NCBI RefSeq assembly: GCF_050920415.1
Contig: NZ_CP169309.1
Length of the DNA: 64,000 nucleotides
From: Escherichia coli
Lineage (GTDB): Bacteria > Pseudomonadota > Gammaproteobacteria > Enterobacterales > Enterobacteriaceae
Strand: one strand, 5' to 3'
The notes under the pieces are model-generated. The model was not told where the DNA came from. It worked only from the letters and a program-made list of their open reading frames with translations, and ran no database searches. Made by a program: the position numbers and the translations under genes. Shown here one piece after another: positions 18,871 to 43,552 of this stretch; the stretch's first letter is position 1; every line of letters begins with the position of its first letter.

Positions 18871-19048
18871 GCTTGTAAATTTTCACAGGCTTAATAGGGA
18901 TGGCGGGTAATTCACCTTCATTTAACGCGCTTGCCATACCCAATATTAAACGCGCTTCAGCACCAGTGACTTTTTTGCACCATGCGCCGCCTGTTTTATC
19001 TTCGAATAAGATAACGGCAAACTGATCGTTTATTTCCAGCTTATCCAT
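18848..19048 (-). CDS. hypothetical protein
   Basis: 66-aa ORF whose ATG overlaps the Q-like stop codon (TAATG). Confidence 0.35.
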   Translation of the reverse strand: MDKLEINDQFAVILFEDKTGGAWCKKVTGAEARLILGMASALNEGELPAIPIKPVKIYKRGDDDEA

Positions 19049-19770
19049 TATTCACCCCGTGTTACTCGTTTAATCTCACTTTCCGCGCGGGCCTCTTCTT
19101 TGAATAGCTCAGCTATGGCGTCTTCATAGAAAACCCGGTATTTTTTCCACCATGTTGATCGGCTTACCGGAAAGACAAGCTGGTTAACCGCCTGCCGGAC
19201 AAGATCTACCGGGAAACGCGAGTACCCGCGCCCGCCGCAGTGTTGGCACGTTTTGAATACTGGCATTTCCGCCGCTTCGCTGGCTGCTTTATCCGGTATC
19301 TCGCCGCGACCTTTGCATTGTTTACAATGATTGCGAACCTTTCCATGCCCCTTGCATTTTTTGCAAAGGTGTTTTTCTCCGTAGTCGTCAAACGTAAATT
19401 TATATCCGCCGCACTCCATACAAGTTTTTTCCGTCGCGGCGCTTTGGCAATAATCCCGAAACGCGAAAACGGCAACAAGAATAATAAGATCATTGCGTTG
19501 TTCTTCATTTAATTCCATCACGTATTCGTAATCTTTCGCCATAGCTCTTAAACGCTCTGTAAGTAATACTACGGCCCTGTGTTTTTCGGCTTGCGATAGT
19601 TCCATCTTCCCTAAAAAAGCGCTATATCCAAGCTCTACGCGCGATTGCGCCATACCAGCGGCGGTAAGCGCATCCGTCGTATTAAGTGCATCAGGTGATG
19701 TTCCCCGGCTTTCGTCTGATAATCGCGGTGATTTTGGGAAGTGGAATTTAAGAATGGATTCTAAATTCAT
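19048..19770 (-). CDS. antitermination protein Q-like
   Basis: 240 aa, cysteine-rich zinc-binding region (CMECGG...CKKCKGHGK...CKQCKGRG...CQHCGGRG), position after ninG/rusA as in lambdoid phages. Confidence 0.55.
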   Translation of the reverse strand: MNLESILKFHFPKSPRLSDESRGTSPDALNTTDALTAAGMAQSRVELGYSAFLGKMELSQAEKHRAVVLLTERLRAMAKDYEYVMELNEEQRNDLIILVAVFAFRDYCQSAATEKTCMECGGYKFTFDDYGEKHLCKKCKGHGKVRNHCKQCKGRGEIPDKAASEAAEMPVFKTCQHCGGRGYSRFPVDLVRQAVNQLVFPVSRSTWWKKYRVFYEDAIAELFKEEARAESEIKRVTRGE

Positions 19771-19952: not shown

Positions 19953-20356
19953 TGCTCACCCCACATATTCGTCGCGTATTCGTCAATATCCGGTAGCAGG
20001 TCGCCGCGTTCGCGTACCTTGATAAACAATCGCCCGCCTTTTACCTTCCGGCAGCGTACAATTTTTATTGAGTCGATTTGTCCGTCGTCAGTCCAGAATC
20101 CGGCGTAAGTAAGGCTATCAAAAAGGCATTTGGGGATATTATCCAGATCTCTGATCCGGTTATCCGGCGGCGCGGCATAAATGGCGATTGCCAGTCGGCA
20201 AGATAGGTTAATGTCTAAATTTAATAATTCGATGATGTCTTTTACTTGCTCCCGGTATTCCTTCCCCACTTTGCTGATATAGTGAAAACCGCGCGAATGT
20301 CGGTAATAGCGGTTATTCGATGGCGGGTAAGGCAGGCTAAAAGTATATTCATTCAT
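19949..20356 (-). CDS. rusA: Holliday junction resolvase RusA
   Basis: 135 aa; N-terminal LPYPPSNNRYYRH and downstream RDLDN match the RusA family. Confidence 0.75.
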   Translation of the reverse strand: MNEYTFSLPYPPSNNRYYRHSRGFHYISKVGKEYREQVKDIIELLNLDINLSCRLAIAIYAAPPDNRIRDLDNIPKCLFDSLTYAGFWTDDGQIDSIKIVRCRKVKGGRLFIKVRERGDLLPDIDEYATNMWGEQ

Positions 20357-20958
20357 GCCGCCTTTCTCCTTAAGGCGTCCAATTTTGCCTGATAGATGTT
20401 TATTAGCTCCTTACATTCTGCGATCGTCCATTTGTGCGTATCGTTGTTGTTCTCCAGTGCTACCACCCTGGCGAGGCCAATTTTTCGAATCAGCGCCGGG
20501 CGATACCCTCCGATGTTGCCGTCTAGTGTCTGGTTGCAGTGCCTGCATTGCTTGTGACAATTATCCTCGTTGAAGCGAAGGTGTCCGGCGGCGGCTACCG
20601 TCCTGTAATGGCCTGCATCCCACCCGCATTGCTCACCGTAGTAAGTCCCGCATGATATGCACGGCAATCGCGCGTCACGCTCGCGTATATAAGCGTTAAA
20701 AACGTTTTGCGCCTGTTTAATCCAGTAGCTACGCGGATTTAACTGCTTCCGCTTCCGGTTGCGTTCTTCCCGCTGGCTATCACGGCGTTTCTTCCGTTCC
20801 ATAGCCTTCATAGCCTTCTCACGGTCGCGGCATAGCTGATCAAACTTCAGTTCTTCCAGACATTCATCGCTGCACCACGTTTGATTGTGATATTTAGGCT
20901 CAAAAAAAACGCCGCAGCATTTGCAACGGCGTCTTATGGGTTTTTTAGGGTTCTGCAT
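20353..20958 (-). CDS. ninG: NinG (Rap) recombination protein
   Basis: RSYWIKQAQ...AYIRERD...PCISCG...WDAGHYRT...LRFNE...HKQC closely matches lambda NinG; start at MQNPKK with a GGGGTGG SD. Confidence 0.75.
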   Translation of the reverse strand: MQNPKKPIRRRCKCCGVFFEPKYHNQTWCSDECLEELKFDQLCRDREKAMKAMERKKRRDSQREERNRKRKQLNPRSYWIKQAQNVFNAYIRERDARLPCISCGTYYGEQCGWDAGHYRTVAAAGHLRFNEDNCHKQCRHCNQTLDGNIGGYRPALIRKIGLARVVALENNNDTHKWTIAECKELINIYQAKLDALRRKAA

Positions 20959-20972
20959 AAAAACCACCCCTA

Positions 20973-21149
20973 TTATTTTTGATTCTCTGTTTCGTTCAGC
21001 CTTTCGGCGTGTCCGGCCCTTAGCCGATGATCTAAGCATTCGTTGCACTCGTTACGGCCTCCTTTCTTCGTGCTGCATACATTGCACATTGCACGCATGA
21101 CGCTCTCTCGTTCATAGTCGTCATGCCATTGGTAATCATCAAAAGACAT
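20973..21149 (-). CDS. ninF: NinF-like small zinc-ribbon protein (58 aa, absent from the ORF track)
   Basis: AAGGAGAG SD; ESV(M/E)RA..C..C motifs and length equal to lambda NinF; directly upstream of ninG. Confidence 0.5.
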   Translation of the reverse strand: MSFDDYQWHDDYERESVMRAMCNVCSTKKGGRNECNECLDHRLRAGHAERLNETENQK

Positions 21150-28298: not shown

Positions 28299-28589
28299 TT
28301 AATGGTAGCGGACTTTATCCAGGGGTTTTTCCCCTAAATGGCGTGGTTGCGTTGCGTGGTAGTAGCTGCCGCTTTCATTTTCCGTATACCATTTTACTGG
28401 TCCTTTGCGACGTTCTTTAATGCTATTTGGTTTGCATCTTTCCTCGTTTGCAAATCGAATAGCTTTATCCACATTGTCTGTTTTATTGATTGCAGGTGAT
28501 GATTTTCTTTCGTTTTCTCTTTTTATCCTTCTGCGTTCCCTGGCATTCAGTTTACTGTCACATTTGCCATACATAATTGTAACGCTCAT
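28299..28589 (-). CDS. N-like transcription antitermination protein
   Basis: 96 aa with an arginine-rich motif NARERRRIKRENERK near the N-terminus; first gene after pL; boxA/boxB nut site in its leader. Confidence 0.5.
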   Translation of the reverse strand: MSVTIMYGKCDSKLNARERRRIKRENERKSSPAINKTDNVDKAIRFANEERCKPNSIKERRKGPVKWYTENESGSYYHATQPRHLGEKPLDKVRYH

Positions 28590-29795: not shown

Positions 29796-29823
29796 TTGAC
29801 CTAAAAACGCCATTCTGTAAACT
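29796..29823 (+). promoter_or_regulatory. pR-like sigma-70 promoter overlapping an operator-like motif
   Basis: TTGACC, 16-bp spacer, TAAACT; GCCATTCTGTAAACTT overlaps the spacer and -10. Confidence 0.45.
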
Positions 29824-29900
29824 TGCAGACAAGGTAGGGCCATAGTTGCAAAGACGCAAGAAAAAAGATAACGGAATAGCACAAAAAGGCGCATACCTTA

Positions 29901-29933
29901 TGCTCTTTAATAATCTGGTGTCGCTGCGAAGCG
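29901..29933 (+). promoter_or_regulatory. nutR-like site (boxA TGCTCTTTAATAA + boxB hairpin)
   Basis: TGCTCTTTAATAA, then TCTGGTGT, then CGCT-GCGAA-AGCG in the pR leader. Confidence 0.5.
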
Positions 29934-30041
29934 AAAAACAAATATCACGCAACGGCGGGATCTGTTAAGCGGTCAATCACTGCTACCTAATACTAATGGG
30001 ATACCCGCCCGCGCGTTCACTCTAACATAGGAGAAAACACA

Positions 30042-30296
30042 ATGAGTATGCACATGATGAATGAAGTATGGAAATTAAAACTTAACAGCCCTATTCAAAA
30101 ACTTGTCTTAATGGCGATGGCTGAAAAGGCAGATAACAAAGGACGGGTACATGTATCACGCAAAGAAGTAGCCGCAATGTGTGAACTTCCTGTTTATACG
30201 GTACATGATGCCTTCGCCGCGTTAATGGATAAAGGATTTGTTTGTCGTCTTGATGCATTCAGTGATGTCTATGTAGTGATGTTGCCGGAGGAATGA
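30042..30296 (+). CDS. winged-HTH DNA-binding protein (Cro-position, replication-associated HTH)
   Basis: 84 aa; first gene of the rightward operon with an AGGAG SD; directly precedes the replication initiator gene. Confidence 0.4.
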   Translation: MSMHMMNEVWKLKLNSPIQKLVLMAMAEKADNKGRVHVSRKEVAAMCELPVYTVHDAFAALMDKGFVCRLDAFSDVYVVMLPEE

Positions 30297-30299
30297 TCC

Positions 30300-31400
30300 A
30301 TGAAGTGGTTTAAGCATGATAGCGATGCGAACCGCGATGAAAAGCTCCAAAACGTTTTGCTTGATTATGGTCTGGAAGGATACGGGCTTTACTGGTATTG
30401 CATCGAGTTAATAGCTTATGAAGTAGATCAACATAATCTGACATTCGAACTAAAACACGATGCGAGAATTATTGCCCGTAACGTCGGATCAACTCCGAAA
30501 CGTGTAGAAGAAATGATGAGATACTTCATCGAAGTTGGCTTGTTCGATTGCTCGCATGGCGTTGTAAGATGCCTGTCGTTAGCAAAAAGACTTGATCAAT
30601 CAATGGCTTCATCAAAAAGCGAATTTAGGGAAGCAATTAAAAGGCTAAACGTCAAAAAAAATAAAAAGTTAGATAATCCTTTAGTGGAAGTAAATAATTC
30701 ACCAGATACAGAAAAAGAAAAAGAAAAACCATGGCACAACCATGATGCAGCCATGGCACAACCATGTCATAGCCATGGATTAGAAGTAGAAGTAGAAGAA
30801 GAAATAGAAAAAGATATATACACTTCGTGTATTAGCGAAAATGGACAAAAAACGGTCAATCAGGACGGTGTAAGCGAAGCTGCCTTGCGTTGCCTGGCTT
30901 TCTACAACGAAAAGGCAGGATGCAAGTGTCGTGATACTAAGCCATTCATCGAACTACTGACAGAAACAAAAACACGTAAGGCATATACGGAGGAAGAGAT
31001 CACATTAGTAATTGAGTGGGCTTTAACCCAATGGCGTAGCCGTGGTGGAGTACCTAAGCCTATCAACATTTGCCGGGTAACTAAGTTTGATGGGTATCTG
31101 GCTGATGCTGAACAATGGCGCAAGTTATCAGCTACTGTAAACGCTGCCGACGTGGTGGGAGAATTTAACAGCACGTTTGACGGCCTGTTACCACCTGCCG
31201 AACTGGATCGGGATCTTGAACGCAAGATCTATGCGTTCACTGACTACCTGAAAGACAAAAGTATTAACGGCTTTGTCGCCTACTTCGAAACGTTCAAAAA
31301 CACGGCTTCAGATTTTTACTTCGGCAATGGCTTCACTGCGACACTTGATTTTCTGCTTAAACCAAAAACGCTACGTGATACACGCGCTGGCGTTCTTTGA
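30300..31400 (+). CDS. phage replication initiation / replisome organiser-like protein
   Basis: 366 aa; N-terminal MKWFKHDSDANRDEKL segment typical of phage replisome organisers; acidic repeat-containing middle; position upstream of the helicase. Confidence 0.4.
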   Translation: MKWFKHDSDANRDEKLQNVLLDYGLEGYGLYWYCIELIAYEVDQHNLTFELKHDARIIARNVGSTPKRVEEMMRYFIEVGLFDCSHGVVRCLSLAKRLDQSMASSKSEFREAIKRLNVKKNKKLDNPLVEVNNSPDTEKEKEKPWHNHDAAMAQPCHSHGLEVEVEEEIEKDIYTSCISENGQKTVNQDGVSEAALRCLAFYNEKAGCKCRDTKPFIELLTETKTRKAYTEEEITLVIEWALTQWRSRGGVPKPINICRVTKFDGYLADAEQWRKLSATVNAADVVGEFNSTFDGLLPPAELDRDLERKIYAFTDYLKDKSINGFVAYFETFKNTASDFYFGNGFTATLDFLLKPKTLRDTRAGVL

Positions 31401-31533
31401 CCAACCACGATCCGCAAAAATCCAAAATTACCCATAAAACAACCTCACCAGCGAGCTAAATAGCATATGCTGCTACACTTGCTTACCTTTTTGCGATTAG
31501 CTCGTTATAGAGCGTTACAGAGAGGATTTTAAA

Positions 31534-31635
31534 ATGGACGGTAAACACGTTTTCGCCCTGGCCTTTGCCATCGCTGCGGCAATCGCTGTTAACGTCGCTT
31601 TGTTCGGCGGTTTGTACCTTCTCGTTAATCCATAA
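31534..31635 (+). CDS. small hydrophobic peptide (33 aa, MDGKHVFALAFAIAAAIAVNVALFGGLYLLVNP)
   Basis: GAGAGGA SD 7 nt upstream; single TM helix; in the intergenic region after the initiator gene. Confidence 0.4.
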   Translation: MDGKHVFALAFAIAAAIAVNVALFGGLYLLVNP

Positions 31636-31796
31636 CCTACCTACCAGTCTGTAAATCGAAAATTAGCCACCTGATAGCGCCTCTGGCGCAAAAAAGACAC
31701 TGCACCCTTACAAGTGGGTTACGCGGTGGAATTTTGCGTTGTAGCGCGTTTTACGGAAAATAAATATACATTCTGTAAACATGAGGAAGTAACATT

Positions 31797-32915
31797 ATGT
31801 CGCAAAGAAAGATCAGCGATGAGGAATTAATCGCTGAGTACAAGAAGGGGAAAACTTACAAGCAAATAGCCGAAGAATATGGAATGGCAAAACGCAACGT
31901 CGAACGACTGGGCGCGCGGTTGGCGAAACGCGGTTTAATATCCACGCGTCGCGCGCCGGGTTTTGGCGTCAATGGTGAGTCTTTGCTCGTTGATAAAGAT
32001 GGCAATGTAATCATGCGCTGGATTAAAACAGCCCGTGACCGTGATGAAATGGAAAGGCTAATGCAAGCGGCTTGCGATGCTTTCACGGAAGAAATACCCC
32101 GAGCGGAGGCCGTGCCAGTGCCGGAAATTGATTTTCAAAAAAGTCTGGCCCTTTATCCGGTATTCGATTTGCATATAGGGGCGCTTGCTCATAAAGCTGA
32201 GTGCGGCGAAAGCTACGACACCGGGATCGCTGAACGCGTGCTAAATGATTTCTTTGACTACGCGGTAGGCGCTGCGCCAATGTCTGAAAAGGCTGTTTTG
32301 CTTCTCGGCGGTGATGTGCTTCACACTGACGGCCTGTTACCAGTGACGCCATCAAGTAATCACGTTTTAGATTGTGATTCACGCTACGCAAAACTGGTTT
32401 ATGTGGCGATCCGGTCGGTCCGGCGTGCGGTCGGGAAGATGTTACTAAATCATAAGGATGTCGAGATCCAGGTATTATCCGGTAATCACGACCAATCAGG
32501 TATGATCTGGCTACGTGCTGCGCTTGCGGCTTTTTACGAAGATGAGCCGCGTGTGACTGTTGACGTGTCACCTGCCATTGTCCACCACACACAGTACGGC
32601 AAAACATTCCTTGCTTACCACCACGGGCACACTATCAAAAAGCCAGAAAATTTACTTTCTGCCTGCGTTTCTGACTGGCGGGAGGATTTCGGCAAGTCGT
32701 CGGCGGTTTACGCTCATTGCGGGCACTGGCATCATCAACGGCTGATTGAATCATCGTTAGGCGTTGTCGAGTATCACGGCACATTAGCTGGCAAAGACGC
32801 TTATTCAACGAATGGCGGCTGGCGGTCGCGGAGGCTGGCGGCGGTAATAATTTACAGTCCTGATCACGGGGAGATCGGGCGCTTTGTTTATTACCCTGAA
32901 TATTCCATTTTGTAA
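31797..32915 (+). CDS. HTH-domain / calcineurin-like metallophosphoesterase fusion protein
   Basis: N-terminal HTH (KTYKQIAEEYGMAKRNVERL); C-terminal phosphoesterase motifs DLH, GGDVLH, GNHD, GHWHH; GAGGAAG SD. Confidence 0.5.
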   Translation: MSQRKISDEELIAEYKKGKTYKQIAEEYGMAKRNVERLGARLAKRGLISTRRAPGFGVNGESLLVDKDGNVIMRWIKTARDRDEMERLMQAACDAFTEEIPRAEAVPVPEIDFQKSLALYPVFDLHIGALAHKAECGESYDTGIAERVLNDFFDYAVGAAPMSEKAVLLLGGDVLHTDGLLPVTPSSNHVLDCDSRYAKLVYVAIRSVRRAVGKMLLNHKDVEIQVLSGNHDQSGMIWLRAALAAFYEDEPRVTVDVSPAIVHHTQYGKTFLAYHHGHTIKKPENLLSACVSDWREDFGKSSAVYAHCGHWHHQRLIESSLGVVEYHGTLAGKDAYSTNGGWRSRRLAAVIIYSPDHGEIGRFVYYPEYSIL

Positions 32916-32933
32916 ACCTGAGGAAATACCATA

Positions 32934-34355
32934 ATGGTGACTGAGCAAGTAAACTCATTACGCCAGGAACGGGAAGCTGCTGTGATAGGTGGACTCCTGT
33001 TAGGCGGGCTTACTCCTAACGCGCAAGATGTTCTTGCTACGCTCGATCCTGAAGTCTTCACCATTCCACTATATAAACGAGCGTTTGAGATCATCCGGGC
33101 GCAAGCCAGAAACAGAAACCTTATTGACGCGCTGATGGTCGGTGATGAAATCGGTAACGAAAATTTTGTCCCGCTAATGCAAACTGCGCGATCGTGTCCA
33201 TCTGCCGCCAACCTGAAGGGGTACGCCGCGCTATTGCAGGAGGAATATCAGCGGCGGCAAATGCTGGAACTAATGGACGATATACGCTACAACCTGGAAA
33301 CCGGGACACTTGAATCTGTCAGGGAGACGATGAAATATTTTGATTCCCGGTATTCAAAATTAAAGGTAACAAAAGATCAGATTATCCCGGTGCTGTTGCG
33401 CGATGCTGTCCAGGAATACACGGAAGTGCTAAGTAAACGCATGGAGTGTGGCGTGAACTCTGACAACATCAAAACAGGGATTGACCCACTCGACGAAATG
33501 TTAGGCGGCATTAACGCTACTGATCTGGTGCTTATAGCTGGACGCCCAGGGTCTGGTAAATCTGCGTTGGCGTTGGCAATTGCCCGCGCGGCGGCTGAAC
33601 GTCCATACCCTGGCAGCGAAGGTCAACGGGTCGGCGTTTTGCTGTTCACGCTTGAAATGTCGCTCGATCAGATGACTGAACGAGCTATCGCTGGCGCTGG
33701 GAATTTATCAACGGATTGCCTACGTAATCCGGTAAAACTGGATGACGAAGGATGGGCGCACGTTGCCCAGGGGATGAGCGCCCTTGCCGATCTCGATGTG
33801 TGGATTGTTGACGCATCGCAGTTAACGGTTGAGGAAATACGCGCCACCGTCGAACGGATGAAACAGGACCATCCTAATCTTGGAATGGTGATGATTGACT
33901 ACATCGGGTTAATGAAACTGGCTAAGGCCGAACGTCATGATCTCGCCGTAGGGCAATTGTCGTGGTCATTGAAAATGATGGCGAAAGAGTTGCGCGTGCC
34001 AGTGGCGGCGCTGGCGCAATTATCCCGCCGCGTTGAAGAACGACCGAACAAGCGCCCGAACAATTCTGATCTGCGTGATTCCGGTAATCTTGAACAAGAC
34101 GCAGACCGGATCATCATGGTCTACCGCGACGGCTACTACAACGAACAATCAGTTGCCCGCGAATACATGGAGATCATCGTTTCAAAAAACCGTCACGGGA
34201 AAACGGGGACTGTTTACCAGCGGTTTGACGATAACGGCAACATCATTCCATGCGACCAGGCTCGCGCGGCGTCCGCCTGCATCCAGTCAATGCAACAACG
34301 TCCGGCAGCAAGCCGATTCTCCCCACGAAATAACCAGAATAACTCATCCTTTTAA
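32934..34355 (+). CDS. replicative DNA helicase (DnaB family)
   Basis: 473 aa; Walker A GRPGSGKSALAL, Walker B VMIDYIGLM, C-terminal LAQLSR...RPNNSDLRDSG...ADRIIMVYRD motifs. Confidence 0.8.
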   Translation: MVTEQVNSLRQEREAAVIGGLLLGGLTPNAQDVLATLDPEVFTIPLYKRAFEIIRAQARNRNLIDALMVGDEIGNENFVPLMQTARSCPSAANLKGYAALLQEEYQRRQMLELMDDIRYNLETGTLESVRETMKYFDSRYSKLKVTKDQIIPVLLRDAVQEYTEVLSKRMECGVNSDNIKTGIDPLDEMLGGINATDLVLIAGRPGSGKSALALAIARAAAERPYPGSEGQRVGVLLFTLEMSLDQMTERAIAGAGNLSTDCLRNPVKLDDEGWAHVAQGMSALADLDVWIVDASQLTVEEIRATVERMKQDHPNLGMVMIDYIGLMKLAKAERHDLAVGQLSWSLKMMAKELRVPVAALAQLSRRVEERPNKRPNNSDLRDSGNLEQDADRIIMVYRDGYYNEQSVAREYMEIIVSKNRHGKTGTVYQRFDDNGNIIPCDQARAASACIQSMQQRPAASRFSPRNNQNNSSF

Positions 34356-34434
34356 TTAACTTGAGCAAACGGCTTACCGGAAAGTTGATCTCTTTCTGGT
34401 GGCTGTTTTCGCGCTTAAAACGAGGCGAAAAACA

Positions 34435-34992
34435 ATGAGCATTGAACTTGAAACAAAAGTTATCAATATCCTTGAACTGGACGGCATCGCAACAATGCAC
34501 CAGCTACGCCAGAAAACCGGATTATCAGCGGAATATGACGAAGCCGGATGTTTGCCTGAGACAATTAAACACTTGATTGATACTGGTATTGTCGAGCGTG
34601 TATATACATATTTCGGACCGCGCCGCAGATTATTGGGGTATCGAATTAAATATTTGTATGCACAACGTCGTGATCGTGTGGCGGCGTTATTTAGTGACTA
34701 CAGCGTTAAGAAGCGTATGCGTGACATTAGCGCGGAAACTGGTATCCCGTGGAATTACCTGTCGCGCACGCTGCGTTTAATGGTACTTGATGAAACGCTT
34801 TGCATAGACACCAATAAACACGGCCTTAACTTTTACTCACTGTTTAAACCTGGTCGCTTTGGTCACGCTAATGATCTCGCGTTTGATTTTGACAGCCGCC
34901 TGAATGAATACCGGAAAAATAACGGCCTGTTACCGGATAAACCAGTATTTGAGATCGAAAAACTTAACGGTGAAACGGGGTTAGAATTATGA
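34435..34992 (+). CDS. hypothetical protein (N-terminal winged-helix-like)
   Basis: About 185 aa starting MSIELETK; unknown function. Confidence 0.35.
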   Translation: MSIELETKVINILELDGIATMHQLRQKTGLSAEYDEAGCLPETIKHLIDTGIVERVYTYFGPRRRLLGYRIKYLYAQRRDRVAALFSDYSVKKRMRDISAETGIPWNYLSRTLRLMVLDETLCIDTNKHGLNFYSLFKPGRFGHANDLAFDFDSRLNEYRKNNGLLPDKPVFEIEKLNGETGLEL

Positions 34993-35195
34993 GACGGGTA
35001 ATCTTTTATTCAGTTGAAACGTTTGTCGACGATACGCGCGTTTATTATCCGTGGGAAGTATACGACGCAAAGGTGTATACACCGCCACTGATGCGGAAAT
35101 ATAAACACGTAAAATTTAACCGGGTTTTTGTGCCAATGCGCGATGCATTGCGGGCGCTGCGCGGGGAATTACGAAACACAATGCGGATTGTGTAA
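34989..35195 (+). CDS. hypothetical protein
   Basis: 68 aa, 4-nt overlap with the upstream gene. Confidence 0.35.
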   Translation: MRRVIFYSVETFVDDTRVYYPWEVYDAKVYTPPLMRKYKHVKFNRVFVPMRDALRALRGELRNTMRIV

Positions 35196-35206
35196 GGAGG
35201 GGATTA

Positions 35207-35403
35207 TGAACAAGGATTTAGAATTGACCGTGGAGGATTTAAGCACGATTGCGGAATACATGCGCGGCGATGATCCTGATAAACCTGTCACTGTTGACAT
35301 GAAATATTTAAAAGGCGCTTACATGACAAGCTCGCGGCTAATTTCTTTGCAGGCGATTATGTATGCGCGGGCGCAATGGAAAAATAGCAACGGTGTATTA
35401 TGA
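35207..35403 (+). CDS. hypothetical protein
   Basis: 65 aa starting MNKDLELT with an AGGAGG SD; overlaps the ninB start. Confidence 0.4.
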
Positions 35404-35831
35404 GGCAAATTAGATTTGAAGTAGTTAATGACGCCGTGAAAGAAAATGCTATCAGGCAGATAAGGGAAATACAGCCTGATAGCAAAAGCCCGCTGATAAT
35501 TACCATCCAGGAGAAAACCCGCTCACTAAGCCAAAATGCGTTGCTTTGGGCGCTGCTAACCGACATTAGCGATCAGGTTAATTGGTACGGCAAGAAGCTG
35601 TCTCCGGAAGACTGGAAAGCGGTATTCACTGCCGGACTTAAGAAATATGGCGTCGTCCCTAACCTGGATAAATCCGGCTTCGTTGTATTGGGAACGTCTA
35701 CAAGCCGGATGAGCAAATCGGAATTCAGTGAACTAATCGAATTAATTTACTCGTTCGGTGCTGAACATAATGTCCAATGGTCGGGTGATACGAAATTAAA
35801 TGAGGAATTCATAAAACGCTGGGGGCAATAA
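35400..35831 (+). CDS. ninB: NinB recombination protein
   Basis: 143 aa; IQEKTRSLSQNALLWALL...VPNLDKSGFVVLGTSTSRM closely parallels lambda NinB. Confidence 0.75.
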   Translation: MRQIRFEVVNDAVKENAIRQIREIQPDSKSPLIITIQEKTRSLSQNALLWALLTDISDQVNWYGKKLSPEDWKAVFTAGLKKYGVVPNLDKSGFVVLGTSTSRMSKSEFSELIELIYSFGAEHNVQWSGDTKLNEEFIKRWGQ

Positions 35832-36007
35832 TGGCGCGTTATTATATGGCTAAACCTACCGGAATTTTGTATAAGGTTGATGGCGAATACGTTTTTTATT
35901 TTCACAACCAGGCGCGAGAGTGGCGATTGTGTCACGCGCACTTTCAGCACGAAATAGAAAACCACCCTGAATATTTTATTAAGGTTGACAATGTAACGGT
36001 GGCGTAA
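35831..36007 (+). CDS. hypothetical protein (58 aa, not in the ORF track)
   Basis: ATG overlaps the ninB stop (TAATG). Confidence 0.35.
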   Translation: MARYYMAKPTGILYKVDGEYVFYFHNQAREWRLCHAHFQHEIENHPEYFIKVDNVTVA

Positions 36008-36022
36008 CTGAGGATAGGCAAA

Positions 36023-36667
36023 ATGAATAAACTTAAAGCAATTGGCGTAATTCGCCATCGTGTAGACCCGGACTACCCTTCTTTTGAGGTTGCCACATAC
36101 CGCAACGAATACCAATATGGATCATCTTTCCTTGTGGGTGTTCGCGCTGATACTGGCGGCACTTATTCAGTTATGGCGGCTTCATGTGTTTTTGAAGAAT
36201 ATAAAAATATAGATGATGACGGCATGAATAAAGAAAGCGAAATTATTGATGAATTAATCGAAGATGAGCGGCATGATTGCGATGCGCCGAAAGTCACGGA
36301 ATGGAAACCAGGAGAAAAGCCTCCGTGCGGCGTGTGGCTTGATTGTTATTATCCTGATGGCTATCACATTGGGATTTTAATGTTTAAATTTATCGGTGAT
36401 AAATACGGGGTATACACAGAAAAAGGCAGTATACAGAAAGAAAATGCTATTGAATGGGGTTTTTATAATTATTATTTATACGTTGATCCGAAAGAAAAAG
36501 CACTGGCACAAATTGCGTTTGCGTTGGCTGCTAAGGTTATTGGTGAGGATGCGGCAGGAGAAATAAATTTCAATCGTGATAATGATTATTCGCGTGATTA
36601 TCGGAATATGGCAAAAGCCATTATTAATGGGGATATCCCGCTAACTAAATATAACGGGGATAAGTGA
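36023..36667 (+). CDS. hypothetical protein
   Basis: 214 aa; GAGG SD; unknown function. Confidence 0.4.
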   Translation: MNKLKAIGVIRHRVDPDYPSFEVATYRNEYQYGSSFLVGVRADTGGTYSVMAASCVFEEYKNIDDDGMNKESEIIDELIEDERHDCDAPKVTEWKPGEKPPCGVWLDCYYPDGYHIGILMFKFIGDKYGVYTEKGSIQKENAIEWGFYNYYLYVDPKEKALAQIAFALAAKVIGEDAAGEINFNRDNDYSRDYRNMAKAIINGDIPLTKYNGDK

Positions 36668-36897
36668 TGGATAAAACCGCGACATTGTTATTGACTACGG
36701 CACGAATAAGGGAAATGCTCGGAGGAATAAGTAGGACAACATTCAGAGTATGGAAAATGAAATGGGAAGCGGCTGGAACACCATTTCCTGAACCGCTTCA
36801 CGAATTATCAACTACGTCGCGCCCTGTATATCGTTATCAAGATGTAATGCAGTTCTTTAAGTCAGTAGGCTTGCTTTCTGATACTGATAAAACGTAA
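36664..36897 (+). CDS. AlpA/Xis-family DNA-binding protein (putative excisionase)
   Basis: 77 aa; IREMLGGISRTTFRVW...FPEP...RPVYRYQDVMQFF fits the AlpA-type HTH pattern; adjacent and convergent to the integrase. Confidence 0.55.
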   Translation: MMDKTATLLLTTARIREMLGGISRTTFRVWKMKWEAAGTPFPEPLHELSTTSRPVYRYQDVMQFFKSVGLLSDTDKT

Positions 36898-38057
36898 TTA
36901 GCCCATAATTCCGCAGCGTCTTTCTGTTCTTCTACATAATCATATCTGTCATAAACTCCTAATACTCCGCCCAGGGTATGGCCCAACATTTTTTCGGCTA
37001 CCTGGGCGGTCACGCCTAATGCCGCTAAATGCGTGCGGCACGTCCGGCGCAAATCATGCGCAGTAAAACCCGCCTTAAATCCAATTTCATTACTAAGCCT
37101 TGTCGCTAGTCTTGTGCACACAGCTTTATCCATTGGTTTACCATCCAGCGACAATACCGCAGGGAAAACTATGTCGAAGTTGTGACAATTAAACATCATG
37201 CTTAATAGCTCGACGCTTAACGTTGACAGGCCGCGCGTAAACCGCTTTTTGTTTTTGGATAGTTCCGCAGGAATATTCCATACCCTGTTATTGAGATCAA
37301 AATGTTCACGCTTTGCTAGCCTCAATTCTACCGTCCTGCATCCTGTTAATAGCAGTAGTCTGAAGAATGTCATATTGGCCTTAGACATAAAATCGCCAGT
37401 CGTAAAACGCCAGAATTCCCCTACTTCCTCGCCAGATAAATATCTGTCGATCTTGCGCGGCGGTTTGCCAACGTCTTCCACTCGCAACAAGCGGATCTCG
37501 TTGTCTTTTACTATCCCTTTCCTTTGCGCCATAGCGACAATGGATTTCATGCGTCGTAACATCGCGCCAGCCTGTACCGGATGGCCCGCTTTCGTTATCT
37601 CTGAGAATATTGCCTCCCACGCCCTTGCGTTAATGTCATCCACAATAAAATCGCCATACCTCTTGATTATGTGCTTTTGTAAGTTTTGCTTGATCTCTTT
37701 GTATCCCTTAATTTCCCTGGTCGTCTGTTTATTAAGATAGTTGTTAACGATATCGCTAACGGTTGCTCTCGCCCTCGCCTCTTCAATGCGCTGCTTCTTA
37801 GCAAGTCCGGGATCTTTGCCGTCTGCTAATATCGCCTTGCACTCAATTACCGCTAGCCTGGCTTCCTTTAGCGTCATTATGCCATAGTTGCCTAGCTTCA
37901 TTCTTTTAGGCTTCCCGTCATACCTGTAGCGATACTGAAACGTAATTACGCCTTTCGGGCTTACCCTTACTGACAGACCGCCGCCATCCGGGATCTCGAC
38001 CGGACCATCATAACTTTTACCGTGGATGCTTCTTAACTTAGTGTCAGATAACGCCAT
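36837..38057 (-). CDS. tyrosine-type site-specific integrase (P4-like)
   Basis: 406 aa; C-terminal catalytic region with HDLRRT and LGHT...Y; lies at the prophage-chromosome junction. Confidence 0.8.
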   Translation of the reverse strand: MALSDTKLRSIHGKSYDGPVEIPDGGGLSVRVSPKGVITFQYRYRYDGKPKRMKLGNYGIMTLKEARLAVIECKAILADGKDPGLAKKQRIEEARARATVSDIVNNYLNKQTTREIKGYKEIKQNLQKHIIKRYGDFIVDDINARAWEAIFSEITKAGHPVQAGAMLRRMKSIVAMAQRKGIVKDNEIRLLRVEDVGKPPRKIDRYLSGEEVGEFWRFTTGDFMSKANMTFFRLLLLTGCRTVELRLAKREHFDLNNRVWNIPAELSKNKKRFTRGLSTLSVELLSMMFNCHNFDIVFPAVLSLDGKPMDKAVCTRLATRLSNEIGFKAGFTAHDLRRTCRTHLAALGVTAQVAEKMLGHTLGGVLGVYDRYDYVEEQKDAAELWANYVLSVSESKPTDLKNCITS

Positions 38058-40801: not shown

Positions 40802-42343
40802 TTACTCTTCGTTCTTCTTCTGACTCAGACCATATTCCCGCAACTTATTGGCAATCGCGGTATGCGAAACGCCGAGACGTTTTGCCAGTTTGCGCGTGCT
40901 GGGATAATTGCGATAAAGCTGACTTAATACCGAGCGTTCAAAACGGCTGGTAATTTCGTCCAGCGAACCTTCCATCGCATCTTCGCCCACGGCTACCGTT
41001 GCGGCGTCATAATCCGGCAACAAAATATCCTGAGGACGCAGCTCATAGCCGTCCAGTTGTGTCAGTGCGCGATAGATAGCGTTCTTTAACTGCCGCACAT
41101 TTCCCGGCCACGCATAACGCGTAAGTACAGTATTCAGGTCAGCGGCCAGTTTCGGACGCGGCACGCCCTGCTCGTCGGCAAAGCGGGCGACGAACAGCTC
41201 GGTTAACGGCATGATGTCCTGCGGACAGTCACGTAACGGCGGCAGATTGAGCGTCAACACGTTCAGACGATAATAGAGATCTTCACGGAACACGCCTTTT
41301 TGCACCAGTTCGACCAAATTCTTCTGCGTAGCGCAAATAACCCTTACATCGACATGCACTTCATGATCTTCACCAACTCGACGGAAAGTACCATCATTAA
41401 GGAAACGCAGTAATTTCGCCTGCATCCTTGGCGACATCTCGCCTATCTCATCTAACAGCACCGAACCACCGTTCGCCTGCTCAAAGAACCCTTTTTTACC
41501 TTCCGGAGCATGACCAAACAGTTCACTCTCGACCGCATCTTCCGGTATAGACGCGCAGTTCAGCGCCAGATAAGGTTTGCCCGCTCGTGGGCTTGCCTGA
41601 TGGCAGGCGTAGGCAAAGAGATCTTTACCTGTACCGGTGTCACCCGTAATCAGCAACGGCGCGCTTAGCATCGCCAGTTTCTGCGCCTGTTCGACAACAT
41701 GCTTCATTTTCGGGCTGACGGCGACAATTTGACTGAAGGCACTGACGTCCTGTGCAGCGACATTCTGCAACTGACGACCCATACGAATCGTCGAGCGCAA
41801 CATCACCACCGCACCGGTCAGAACGTGTTGATCATTTTCATCCTGAAGATAAACAGGCGTAATCTCCATCAGGAAATTCTGCCCATTAATAACGACATGC
41901 TCGTTATGCGAGTCTTGCGGTTCGCTTTCCAGCCAGCGTAAAAAATTAAAGCCGTTAATTAATTGCGCGGCGGTATGGTTGCGCAGGCGATCCAATTTTT
42001 GCCCAAAAAGCTGACAGCTCGCCGGGTTCGCCATATCCACTTTGCTTTTCATATCAACAGAAAGCACAGGCTCAGGCAACGCCTCCAGTAACGCGCTCAA
42101 CGCCAGATGCTCACGTTCGGAAGGCATCCACGGAACAGTGCGCACATCGGTAACACCTGCAATACGGCGTATTTCGGCCATCAGACTGCTGAAACTTTCA
42201 AATTCCAGTTCGGCAAAATTGAGGTAGATTCGCCCAATGGGGTCAATCTCAATACCGCGTAAATCAATACCTCTTAGCACGAGTAGATCGAGTAATTCGC
42301 GGGTCAGACCGAGTCGGTCTTCACAAAAGACTTCCAGACGCAT
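40802..42343 (-). CDS. tyrR: transcriptional regulator TyrR
   Basis: 513 aa starting MRLEVFCEDRLG; sigma-54-type AAA+ core and C-terminal HTH. Confidence 0.9.
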   Translation of the reverse strand: MRLEVFCEDRLGLTRELLDLLVLRGIDLRGIEIDPIGRIYLNFAELEFESFSSLMAEIRRIAGVTDVRTVPWMPSEREHLALSALLEALPEPVLSVDMKSKVDMANPASCQLFGQKLDRLRNHTAAQLINGFNFLRWLESEPQDSHNEHVVINGQNFLMEITPVYLQDENDQHVLTGAVVMLRSTIRMGRQLQNVAAQDVSAFSQIVAVSPKMKHVVEQAQKLAMLSAPLLITGDTGTGKDLFAYACHQASPRAGKPYLALNCASIPEDAVESELFGHAPEGKKGFFEQANGGSVLLDEIGEMSPRMQAKLLRFLNDGTFRRVGEDHEVHVDVRVICATQKNLVELVQKGVFREDLYYRLNVLTLNLPPLRDCPQDIMPLTELFVARFADEQGVPRPKLAADLNTVLTRYAWPGNVRQLKNAIYRALTQLDGYELRPQDILLPDYDAATVAVGEDAMEGSLDEITSRFERSVLSQLYRNYPSTRKLAKRLGVSHTAIANKLREYGLSQKKNEE

Positions 42344-42490
42344 GGGAACCTTCACCTGAAAAAAGAACAATTAATATGATGATATGACACTATTTGGATA
42401 GCAGGAAGGTTTCTGTCAACAATCATTGACACAAAGACGGAAAAACGGGCACTTCGGCGTAAAGATATCCGGTCAGCACCCGATATTGCA

Positions 42491-43552
42491 TTATTTTTCG
42501 CTGGGCGTTTTGCCTTTTTGCAGCGTCTCTTTCACCTGACCGATAAGCTGACGACGGAAATCCCCGAGGCGAGGTTTGTCATCGTCAATCCACGGCAGCG
42601 GGCGGCAAAGCTCCATAGCTTTAATCCCCAGTCGTGCCGTCAGAAGTCCAGCACCAATTCCCTGAGCTGCGCGGGTAGACAAACGCGCAGCGAGATCTTG
42701 CGACATCCAGTCCATCCCCACTTCGCGCACCAATTCGCTGGCTCCGGCAAAAGCGATATTCAGCAATACCAGCTTAAACAGGCGCAAACGGCTGTAATAT
42801 CCCAGTTCAATGCCATACAGCGTGGCGATGCGATTGATCAAACGCAGATTGCGCCAGGCGATAAATGCCATATCCACCAGCGCCAGCGGGCTAACGGCGA
42901 TCATTAACGTTGATTCCGCCGCTGAGCGACTGATTTCGCGCCGCGCCTGGGCATCTAAAACCGGCTGGACCAGATGAGCATACAGGCTGACCACTTCACG
43001 ATCGTTCTGCGTTTCATGGATTGAGGCATACCAGCGTTGCAGTGCCGGATGCGACTGGTCGATGCCCGCCTGCTGCGCCAGTTTTTCGCAGAATGCACGG
43101 CCTTTACCCGTGCCGTGGCTGTGCAACAAATCGCGCGCTTCGTCGCGTTCATGGGCGCGCTGTCGCAAGCGCCATAAGCGCCGCCACTCTGTTACCACAG
43201 AACCTACGCCAGCGCCGATAATCAATGCCCCAGCGGCACAGCCGCCCAGGGCCACCCAGTCCTGAGTTTGCCAGGCGTTCATCGTCCACTGCACACCCTG
43301 ACCAACAACGCTTGCACCAAACAGAGCCAACCCGCCCATCACCATTTTGCGCCACAGGCTGCGTTTCGGACGTAACGCTGCGTCCATCACCGCTTCAACT
43401 TGCCCCTCTTCTTCCTGCGCTTCGTCGAGCGTGGCCGGGGCAAAATTTTGCGCCTGATTTTCGTCAAAGGTCTGCTGCGCCCTGAATTTTGGATTCTGAT
43501 CGACCTCCAGTGGACCGTCGAAATCAATACGTGGTTTTAACGGTTCGGTCAT
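42491..43552 (-). CDS. ycjF: UPF0283 inner membrane protein YcjF
   Basis: 353 aa; conserved partner of ycjX. Confidence 0.8.

Follow-up and report, generated by a model that had tools for sequence, protein, structure and literature searches.

A helix-turn-helix metallophosphoesterase encoded next to the DnaB-type helicase gene of an Escherichia coli prophage belongs to a large phage family and is a candidate DNA nuclease

We analysed a 64,000-nucleotide (nt) stretch of Escherichia coli DNA (contig NZ_CP169309.1 of assembly GCF_050920415.1), referred to below as the window, and focused on a gene of its prophage located at 31797-32915 on the plus strand. The open reading frame (ORF), read from the sequence with an ATG start and a TAA stop, encodes a 372-amino-acid (aa) protein in which an N-terminal helix-turn-helix (HTH) is joined to a metallophosphoesterase (MPE) domain, and which we call HTH-MPE. 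The initial annotation had described this ORF as lying after a replication initiator gene and before a gene for a DnaB-type helicase, and the ORF together with the PHROG, Pfam and TIGR matches of its neighbours confirmed that placement. The gene is an unremarkable representative of a phage family that is already catalogued, and only its genomic placement is lineage-specific. With moderate confidence, we propose that the protein is a metal-dependent DNA exo- or endonuclease that is tethered by its HTH, co-expressed with the replication genes and probably active on replication or recombination intermediates.

The assignment to the PHROG 704/T1 gp16 family is supported by the ORF, by the AlphaFold2 model described below and by an end-to-end profile match to PHROG 704, which is labelled 'DNA repair exonuclease' (E = 2.1e-137) and in which residues 4-368 align with positions 2-387 of the 390 in the profile. 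A tblastn search matched 2,044 phage records, 1,959 of these with at least 80% coverage and with alignments spanning 98-100% of the query; they are mostly phages of Escherichia, Klebsiella, Salmonella and Vibrio, and also include phages of Campylobacter, Rhodobacter and Thermus. Scanned exhaustively with HMMER, a set of 1.84 billion representative proteins returned 4,330 matching clusters at E <= 1e-3, almost all with lengths of 370-420 aa, and the best database match of HTH-MPE reached E = 1.5e-244. Hundreds of full-length two-domain homologues, HTH included, are present in AFDB50 and come from Alpha-, Beta- and Gammaproteobacteria. The fusion of HTH and MPE, regarded as unusual by the initial annotation, is not so, because this combination is the norm in PHROG 704, in the phage records matched at high coverage and in the AFDB entries. 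HTH-MPE is 97% identical to a 'DNA repair exonuclease' of Escherichia phage MagusPhagus, 92% to the protein of phage mEp010, 67% to gp18 of phage egaa and 56% to gp16 (ST16) of coliphage T1, and near-identical copies are already in GenBank, namely in MagusPhagus, mEp010 and E. coli prophages. With the family it shares a length of 370-380 aa, the layout of HTH, connector and MPE, the invariant motifs and a family-specific loop; the genomic setting alone differs. In a 2026 pangenome study, the gene is described as 'persistent' in a conserved exonuclease-lysis module, being found in 508 of 522 Drexlerviridae (PMC13164509).

Names within the family are in conflict. Members are listed as 'oxidoreductase', 'Rrf2 family transcriptional regulator', 'DNA polymerase II small subunit', 'DNA methylase', 'winged helix-turn-helix protein', 'calcineurin-like phosphoesterase', 'putative phosphoesterase' or 'DNA repair exonuclease', a clear case of annotation drift.

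Structure prediction and profile searches both recovered the HTH and the MPE domain. The AlphaFold2 model has a mean predicted local distance difference test score (pLDDT) of 91.1. At its N-terminus lies a three-helix HTH (residues 8-44; 31818-31928, plus strand) resembling sigma-70 region 4 and LuxR-GerE domains, as indicated by the model and by family-level profile matches. Its helices span residues 8-16, 21-27 and 32-44, and the pLDDT of the block is 84-95. In the query by itself, Pfam gives the HTH weak support, with sub-threshold matches to HTH_28 (E = 0.019) and Sigma70_r4_2 (E = 0.12). At the family level it is solid, as other members match Sigma70_r4_2 (best E = 2e-9) and GerE (6e-8) and the family profile matches the GerE structure (PDB 1fse, E = 0.005). 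A linker predicted to be disordered (residues 52-56) separates the HTH from a connector, which was delimited by the secondary structure and pLDDT of the model and consists of a beta-hairpin (residues 56-79) and a helix (residues 82-97; connector at 31962-32087, plus strand). In the family alignment, conservation of at least 90% is seen at the connector residues G69 and W75. The remainder of the protein, residues 114-372 (32136-32912, plus strand), is a binuclear MPE domain of the Mre11/SbcD/DP1 structural type and has the beta-sandwich fold of the calcineurin-like superfamily. Within the MPE superfamily, the predicted fold comes nearest to the nuclease branch, represented by PolD DP1, SbcD and Mre11. 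In profile-to-PDB searches, the family matched Mre11/SbcD and the Pseudomonas putida nuclease MPE, and a profile restricted to the catalytic domain retrieved Thermotoga maritima Mre11/SbcD and the same P. putida 'nuclease MPE', with motifs I (DxHLG) and II (GDLLH) aligned. Searches with the ORF against NCBIfam and PADLOC, and single-sequence searches of the PDB, returned nothing informative.

The initial annotation had read a full MPE motif set (DLH, GGDVLH, GNHD, GHWHH) behind the HTH, and this reading holds. All five motifs of the calcineurin-like superfamily (PF00149), DxH, GDxx(D/H), GNH(D/E), H and GHxH, are present and conserved among 56 aligned homologues whose identity goes as low as 30%. 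Motif I, D124-L-H126-I-G128 (32166-32180), has D124, H126 and G128 invariant. Motif II, G171-G-D173-V-L-H176 (GDxxH; 32307-32324), keeps G172 and D173 without exception and H176 at 90% or above; it aligns with GDLLH of T. maritima Mre11. Motif III, G229-N230-H231-D232 (32481-32492), shows invariant N230 and H231, with G229 and D232 at 90% or above. The metal ligand H276 of motif IV, H274-H-G-H278 (32616-32630), is invariant, as are G309 and H312 of motif V, G309-H310-W-H312-H313 (32721-32735), where H310 is at least 90% conserved. Because the metal-ligand positions D124, H126, D173, N230, H231, H276 and H312 are invariant across the 56 homologues, the product is an enzyme under purifying selection and not a decayed fold. 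Between motifs II and III lies the family-specific loop T184-P-x-S-x-H189-x-L-D192-x-D194-x-R196 (32346-32384; all motifs on the plus strand). In the same alignment T184 never varies, and conservation is 90% or higher at L191, D192, D194 and R196; a second alignment shows P185 and H189 to be invariant. We infer that this loop, TPxSxHxLDxDxR, may bind the substrate.

The gene surroundings of homologues were compared across phages and prophages. Among 5,426 complete E. coli genomes searched, 34 carried the MPE gene. In each of these it lies 18-21 nt 5' of DnaB, and so it does in every one of the roughly 40 IMG/VR contigs that belong to this temperate lineage. This adjacency is kept even where the initiator type differs. 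Homology between the window and related phages resumes only about 38 nt 5' of the MPE ATG, so the conserved cassette begins at the MPE gene; the gene is thus the first of a conserved block in the E. coli temperate lineage that comprises MPE, DnaB and the following genes. Other phages place the gene elsewhere. In T1-like phages (Drexlerviridae) it precedes the lysis cassette and has no adjacent DnaB, and in Jersey it is independently oriented within the tail module, a moron-like placement. A podovirus has it next to genes for endonuclease VII and PNKP, and a T4-like contig has it flanked by a clamp-loader-like gene and a RegA-like (Translat_reg) gene. The module that holds it in Salmonella phage ST44 also encodes a primase, a helicase, Erf and a nuclease of PDDEXK type (DUF3799), and in another lambdoid contig it lies in a nin-like region immediately before Q. 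Among 28 diverse prophage loci of other species, none has DnaB adjacent to the MPE gene, and two hold a DnaB homologue about 4 kb upstream. A conserved partner gene was sought in these 28 loci and rejected, as none recurs. The DNA-metabolism context in unrelated phages, that is, in the podovirus, the T4-like contig, ST44, the nin-like region and next to DnaB here, supports the nuclease reading.

HTH-MPE is a stand-alone enzyme of two modules, in which the HTH is followed by a flexible linker, the beta-hairpin and helix connector, and a binuclear MPE domain with all metal ligands intact. In the mechanism we propose, the gene would be transcribed from pR together with the replication genes. Its product would act as an Mn2+- or Mg2+-dependent DNA exo- or endonuclease held on DNA by the HTH. 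Intermediates of phage replication and recombination would be its substrates, on which it may open or trim ends, flaps, hairpins or 3' mismatches; alternatively, it may possibly act on host DNA. Recruitment of the helicase would fall to the gp18-like C-terminus of the initiator described below and not to HTH-MPE. We infer DNA as the substrate, DNA binding by the HTH and the physiological role.

Mre11/SbcD share with HTH-MPE the nuclease-type MPE core with a GDxxH motif II; they differ in that the sequence similarity is marginal (E about 0.04) and that HTH-MPE has an additional N-terminal HTH and the family loop. The nearest analogues studied by experiment are the stand-alone MPEs of cluster A mycobacteriophages. 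Bxb1 gp47 and L5 gp54, which act as a recombination directionality factor (RDF) and are required for DNA replication, are proteins of about 255 aa without an HTH. Membership of Bxb1 gp47 in the HTH-MPE family was rejected, as gp47 matches PHROG 221 and not 704. The relation is at the superfamily level only, and these mycobacteriophage MPEs are a functional precedent from outside the family. The RDF role with serine integrases does not apply here, because the window phage has a tyrosine integrase. A close homologue of Bxb1 gp47, the MPE Gp48 of mycobacteriophage A10ZJ24, likewise lacks an HTH and has its motif I at D10. Gp48 degrades linear, plasmid and genomic DNA in vitro and DNA also in vivo, is toxic, and is needed to overcome Mycobacterium tuberculosis defences (PMC12287305).

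Several observations weigh against the proposed nuclease function. The Pfam Metallophos hidden Markov model (HMM) gives no match to the query even at E <= 10; within the family, it matches 8 of the 56 aligned members at E <= 1e-3 and 16 at E <= 0.1. Unlike Mre11/SbcD, HTH-MPE has no C-terminal capping domain, the AlphaFold2 model ending with the MPE core at residue 372, and a Rad50/SbcC partner was not found in the window, in the T1 annotation or recurrently in the 28 prophage loci. The relation to Bxb1 gp47 does not go beyond the superfamily level: hhalign gave a probability of 57% (E = 1e-4) against the single gp47 sequence and of 3.6% (E = 0.012) in the profile-profile comparison. Two IMG/VR prophage contigs (L026 and L027) encode proteins that carry H126Y in the metal-binding motif I (DLYIG) and are otherwise 96% identical, and in a T1-like contig (L080) motif III is lost, EETTTKAA replacing EGNHDQSGM; the gene can therefore be dispensable. 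These variants are possibly natural loss-of-function alleles or sequencing errors. Finally, a functional study of any member of the PHROG 704/T1 gp16 family was not found in the searchable literature. A paper on retron triggers makes no mention of the T1 gp16-family gene, and a 2026 preprint on viral metallophosphatases covers Mre11-Rad50 fusions and not PHROG 704.

The same chemistry could serve a different target and purpose. HTH-MPE might be a host-directed DNase or counter-defence nuclease that degrades or nicks host DNA early in infection, shuts off host gene expression, that of defence genes included, and supplies nucleotides. The activity of A10ZJ24 Gp48 provides a precedent, virulent Drexlerviridae have the family as a core gene, many Jersey-like phages carry it too, and the moron-like, independently oriented gene in the Jersey tail module would fit such a role. 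However, Gp48 has no HTH and its homologue Bxb1 gp47 belongs to a different PHROG, no PADLOC or anti-defence signal was obtained, and the copy in the window is that of a temperate phage, on pR with the replication genes, where an indiscriminate DNase is hard to reconcile with lysogeny. We consider a host-directed role rather unlikely for these reasons.

A narrower variant of the nuclease proposal would make HTH-MPE a replisome-associated processing or editing nuclease, coupled in function to the replication proteins of the phage in this lineage. Its conserved N-terminal module would dock it either on DNA or on a partner protein, for instance the DnaB-type helicase, in a phage analogue of the DP1/B-subunit arrangement. 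The comparison with PolD DP1, a 3'-5' proofreading exonuclease, shows 13% identity, and the HTH stands in place of the N-terminal and OB modules of DP1. In contrast to PolD DP1 and the inactive eukaryotic polymerase B-subunits, HTH-MPE has no PolD catalytic subunit or phage polymerase nearby, and the combination of an OB module with a partner is absent. We give this variant a slim chance. If it were true, all Drexlerviridae and many further phages would have this protein as a core factor of their replication.

About equally improbable is a function on small nucleotides. HTH-MPE could be a phosphodiesterase of cyclic or linear signalling nucleotides, Ap4A or 2',3'-cyclic phosphates, with the HTH serving autoregulation or localisation, and as such could be an anti-signalling enzyme of counter-defence. 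Yet the HTH is retained family-wide and would be needless for a soluble nucleotide hydrolase, the top structural and sequence neighbours are nucleases, and the neighbouring genes belong to DNA metabolism. No PADLOC model matched, and no report of such an activity was found for the family.

The initial annotation had further suggested that the gene occupies the slot of a helicase loader and might encode a divergent one. A loader gene in this slot is a feature of lambda-type O/P modules, which borrow the host DnaB, and not of modules with their own helicase. The helicase of the window is 57% identical to P22 gp12 over 453 aa, and the 366-aa initiator protein is, over its C-terminal 87 residues, 34% identical to the C-terminus of P22 gp18 (last 91 residues; E = 3e-13). 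In P22, gene 18 runs directly into gene 12 with no loader gene between them. The replication module is, by these similarities, a P22-type pair of initiator and helicase with an extra enzyme gene between the two, and the premise of a loader slot falls. The initial annotation had also allowed for a better loader candidate elsewhere in the operon, which is borne out in part, since the gp18-like C-terminus of the 366-aa initiator is likelier than HTH-MPE to recruit the helicase, as far as sequence similarity indicates.

For HTH-MPE itself to be a divergent helicase loader or a helicase-coupled replisome factor, its N-terminal module would have to contact the origin or the initiator so that the adjacent DnaB-type helicase is delivered or regulated, the MPE fold being mainly a scaffold. 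The constant spacing of the gene from DnaB in all carriers of the lineage, also where the initiator type differs, is in line with this, as is a mosaic allele in two E. coli loci (L012/L013), in which residues 1-113 are 90-96% identical to those of the window and the catalytic domain only 46%, with the downstream DnaB 97% identical. The allele was rejected as evidence for a helicase interaction, because an HNH homing endonuclease gene is inserted next to the swapped segment and co-conversion is the simpler explanation; the coincidence of insertion and mosaic suggests homing-associated gene conversion. The catalytic residues are invariant, which a scaffold would not need. Helicase coupling is not conserved across the family, DnaB adjacency being limited to the E. 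coli temperate lineage and absent from all 28 diverse prophage loci; T1, Jersey, ST44 and the T4-like contig have homologues without a DnaB-family helicase nearby, and P22 works with the same initiator and helicase pair and no such gene. None of the loader families examined (lambda P, DnaC/DnaI, DciA, T4 gp59, DnaD-like) matched the ORF in Pfam, PHROGs or NCBIfam. Given its P22-like neighbours, the lack of loader-family matches, the invariant catalytic residues and DnaB linkage in one lineage only, HTH-MPE is very unlikely to be a helicase loader.

Least probable of all is that HTH-MPE is a Ser/Thr protein phosphatase like NinI, or that it regulates transcription and its enzymatic domain is incidental. 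The signature motifs of PPP protein phosphatases, NinI included, are GDxHG, GDxxDRG and GNHE. Lambda NinI (lambda-PP) shares the MPE superfamily and the early-right operon of a lambdoid phage with HTH-MPE, one lambdoid contig has the gene before Q, the position of lambda ninI, and the N-terminal HTH is of the sigma-70 region 4/LuxR type, but NinI has no HTH, falls into PHROG 246 and gives an hhalign probability of 0.6%, the PPP signatures are replaced by the Mre11-type motifs FDLHIG, GGDVLH and GNHD, and no conserved operator-like DNA lies upstream of the gene. A NinI relationship was rejected on the hhalign result and the different PHROGs. An autoregulatory operator upstream of the MPE gene was rejected on the end of homology 38 nt before the ATG.

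HNH endonuclease genes (PF13392, HNH_3), presumably homing, directly flank the MPE gene in several unrelated phages. They were located at 5001-6645 in L012/L013, at about 7115-7650 in L046, L047 and L050, at 42028-42510 in T1 (L004; gene ST15), at 8254-8694 in L110, and at about 5435-5994 in L068, L070, L073 and L074.

Around the MPE gene, the window shows the following order on the plus strand. An 84-aa protein (30042-30296) resembles the N-terminal, origin-binding part of phage replication initiators (PHROG 4617, E = 2.7e-21); it also matches the O-like PHROGs 8540 and 391, and all of these matches cover the N-termini of the profiles. It is followed by the 366-aa replication protein (30300-31400), with a Lin1244_N domain (PF14297, E = 2.3e-10) and a P22 gp18/O-like C-terminal part, of which residues 190-364 match PHROGs 428 and 345 ('replication initiation O-like'). 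The two ORFs (30042-31400) are in one frame, with only a stop codon (30294-30296) and one more codon between them, so that the initiator appears to be split. This layout recurs in MagusPhagus, whose coding sequences at 955-1209 and 1213-2265 are likewise in frame. The apparent split could represent two genuine proteins or programmed readthrough.

A spacer (31401-31782) separates the initiator from the MPE gene and is variable, the site being a hot spot for accessory-gene insertion in relatives; in close relatives it measures about 400-1,500 nt, and some hold pRha/Ant-like, zinc-ribbon or DUF559 genes. According to the ORF list, the spacer of the window contains no ORF of 40 aa or more. Checks of 31401-31796 for iterons, inverted repeats, promoters and Rfam families found no iterons, promoter matches or Rfam families, and the repeats were short and at chance level only. 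The MPE gene has a ribosome-binding site (RBS), GAGGAAG (31783-31789, plus strand), read from the sequence 7 nt 5' of its ATG. The DnaB-family replicative helicase gene of P22 gp12 type (32934-34355, plus strand; TIGR00665, E = 1.6e-97; PHROG 19) starts 18 nt past the MPE stop codon and has its own RBS, GAGGAAA. Directly 3' of the helicase lies a gene for a 197-aa protein (34399-34992, plus strand) with a weak MarR-family PHROG match (2e-8). This protein also shows a faint match to a Ren-like exclusion protein and occupies the position of lambda ren; relatives carry either the allele of the window or one about 36% identical.

The layout of the prophage is unusual for a lambdoid phage, with a leftward operon (117-28600, minus strand) opposite a rightward one (29800-36900, plus strand). 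The leftward operon encodes an N-like antiterminator (28299-28589, minus strand), NinG/Rap (20353-21048, minus strand) and a Q-like antiterminator (19048-19770, minus strand), together with Erf, SSB, the anti-RecBCD protein Abc2 and two DNA methyltransferases; the large minus-strand ORFs after the Q-like gene are presumably late genes. The rightward operon contains only replication genes and NinB and runs into the gene for a tyrosine integrase (36837-38057, minus strand). Convergent with the integrase gene and overlapping its 3' end is a gene for a 77-aa DNA-binding protein (36664-36897, plus strand; PHROG 4745, E = 8e-9), a candidate excisionase by its sequence match. No tRNA gene was found in the 64-kb window.

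For the locus itself, little changes, as HTH-MPE is a routine member of its family. That family comprises about 4,300 clusters, occurs in more than 2,000 phages and is core in the T1-like phages used in therapy and in defence-system screens. Given the great size of the family, its core status in T1-like phages and its inconsistent annotation, settling the function of HTH-MPE would have wide value for annotation.

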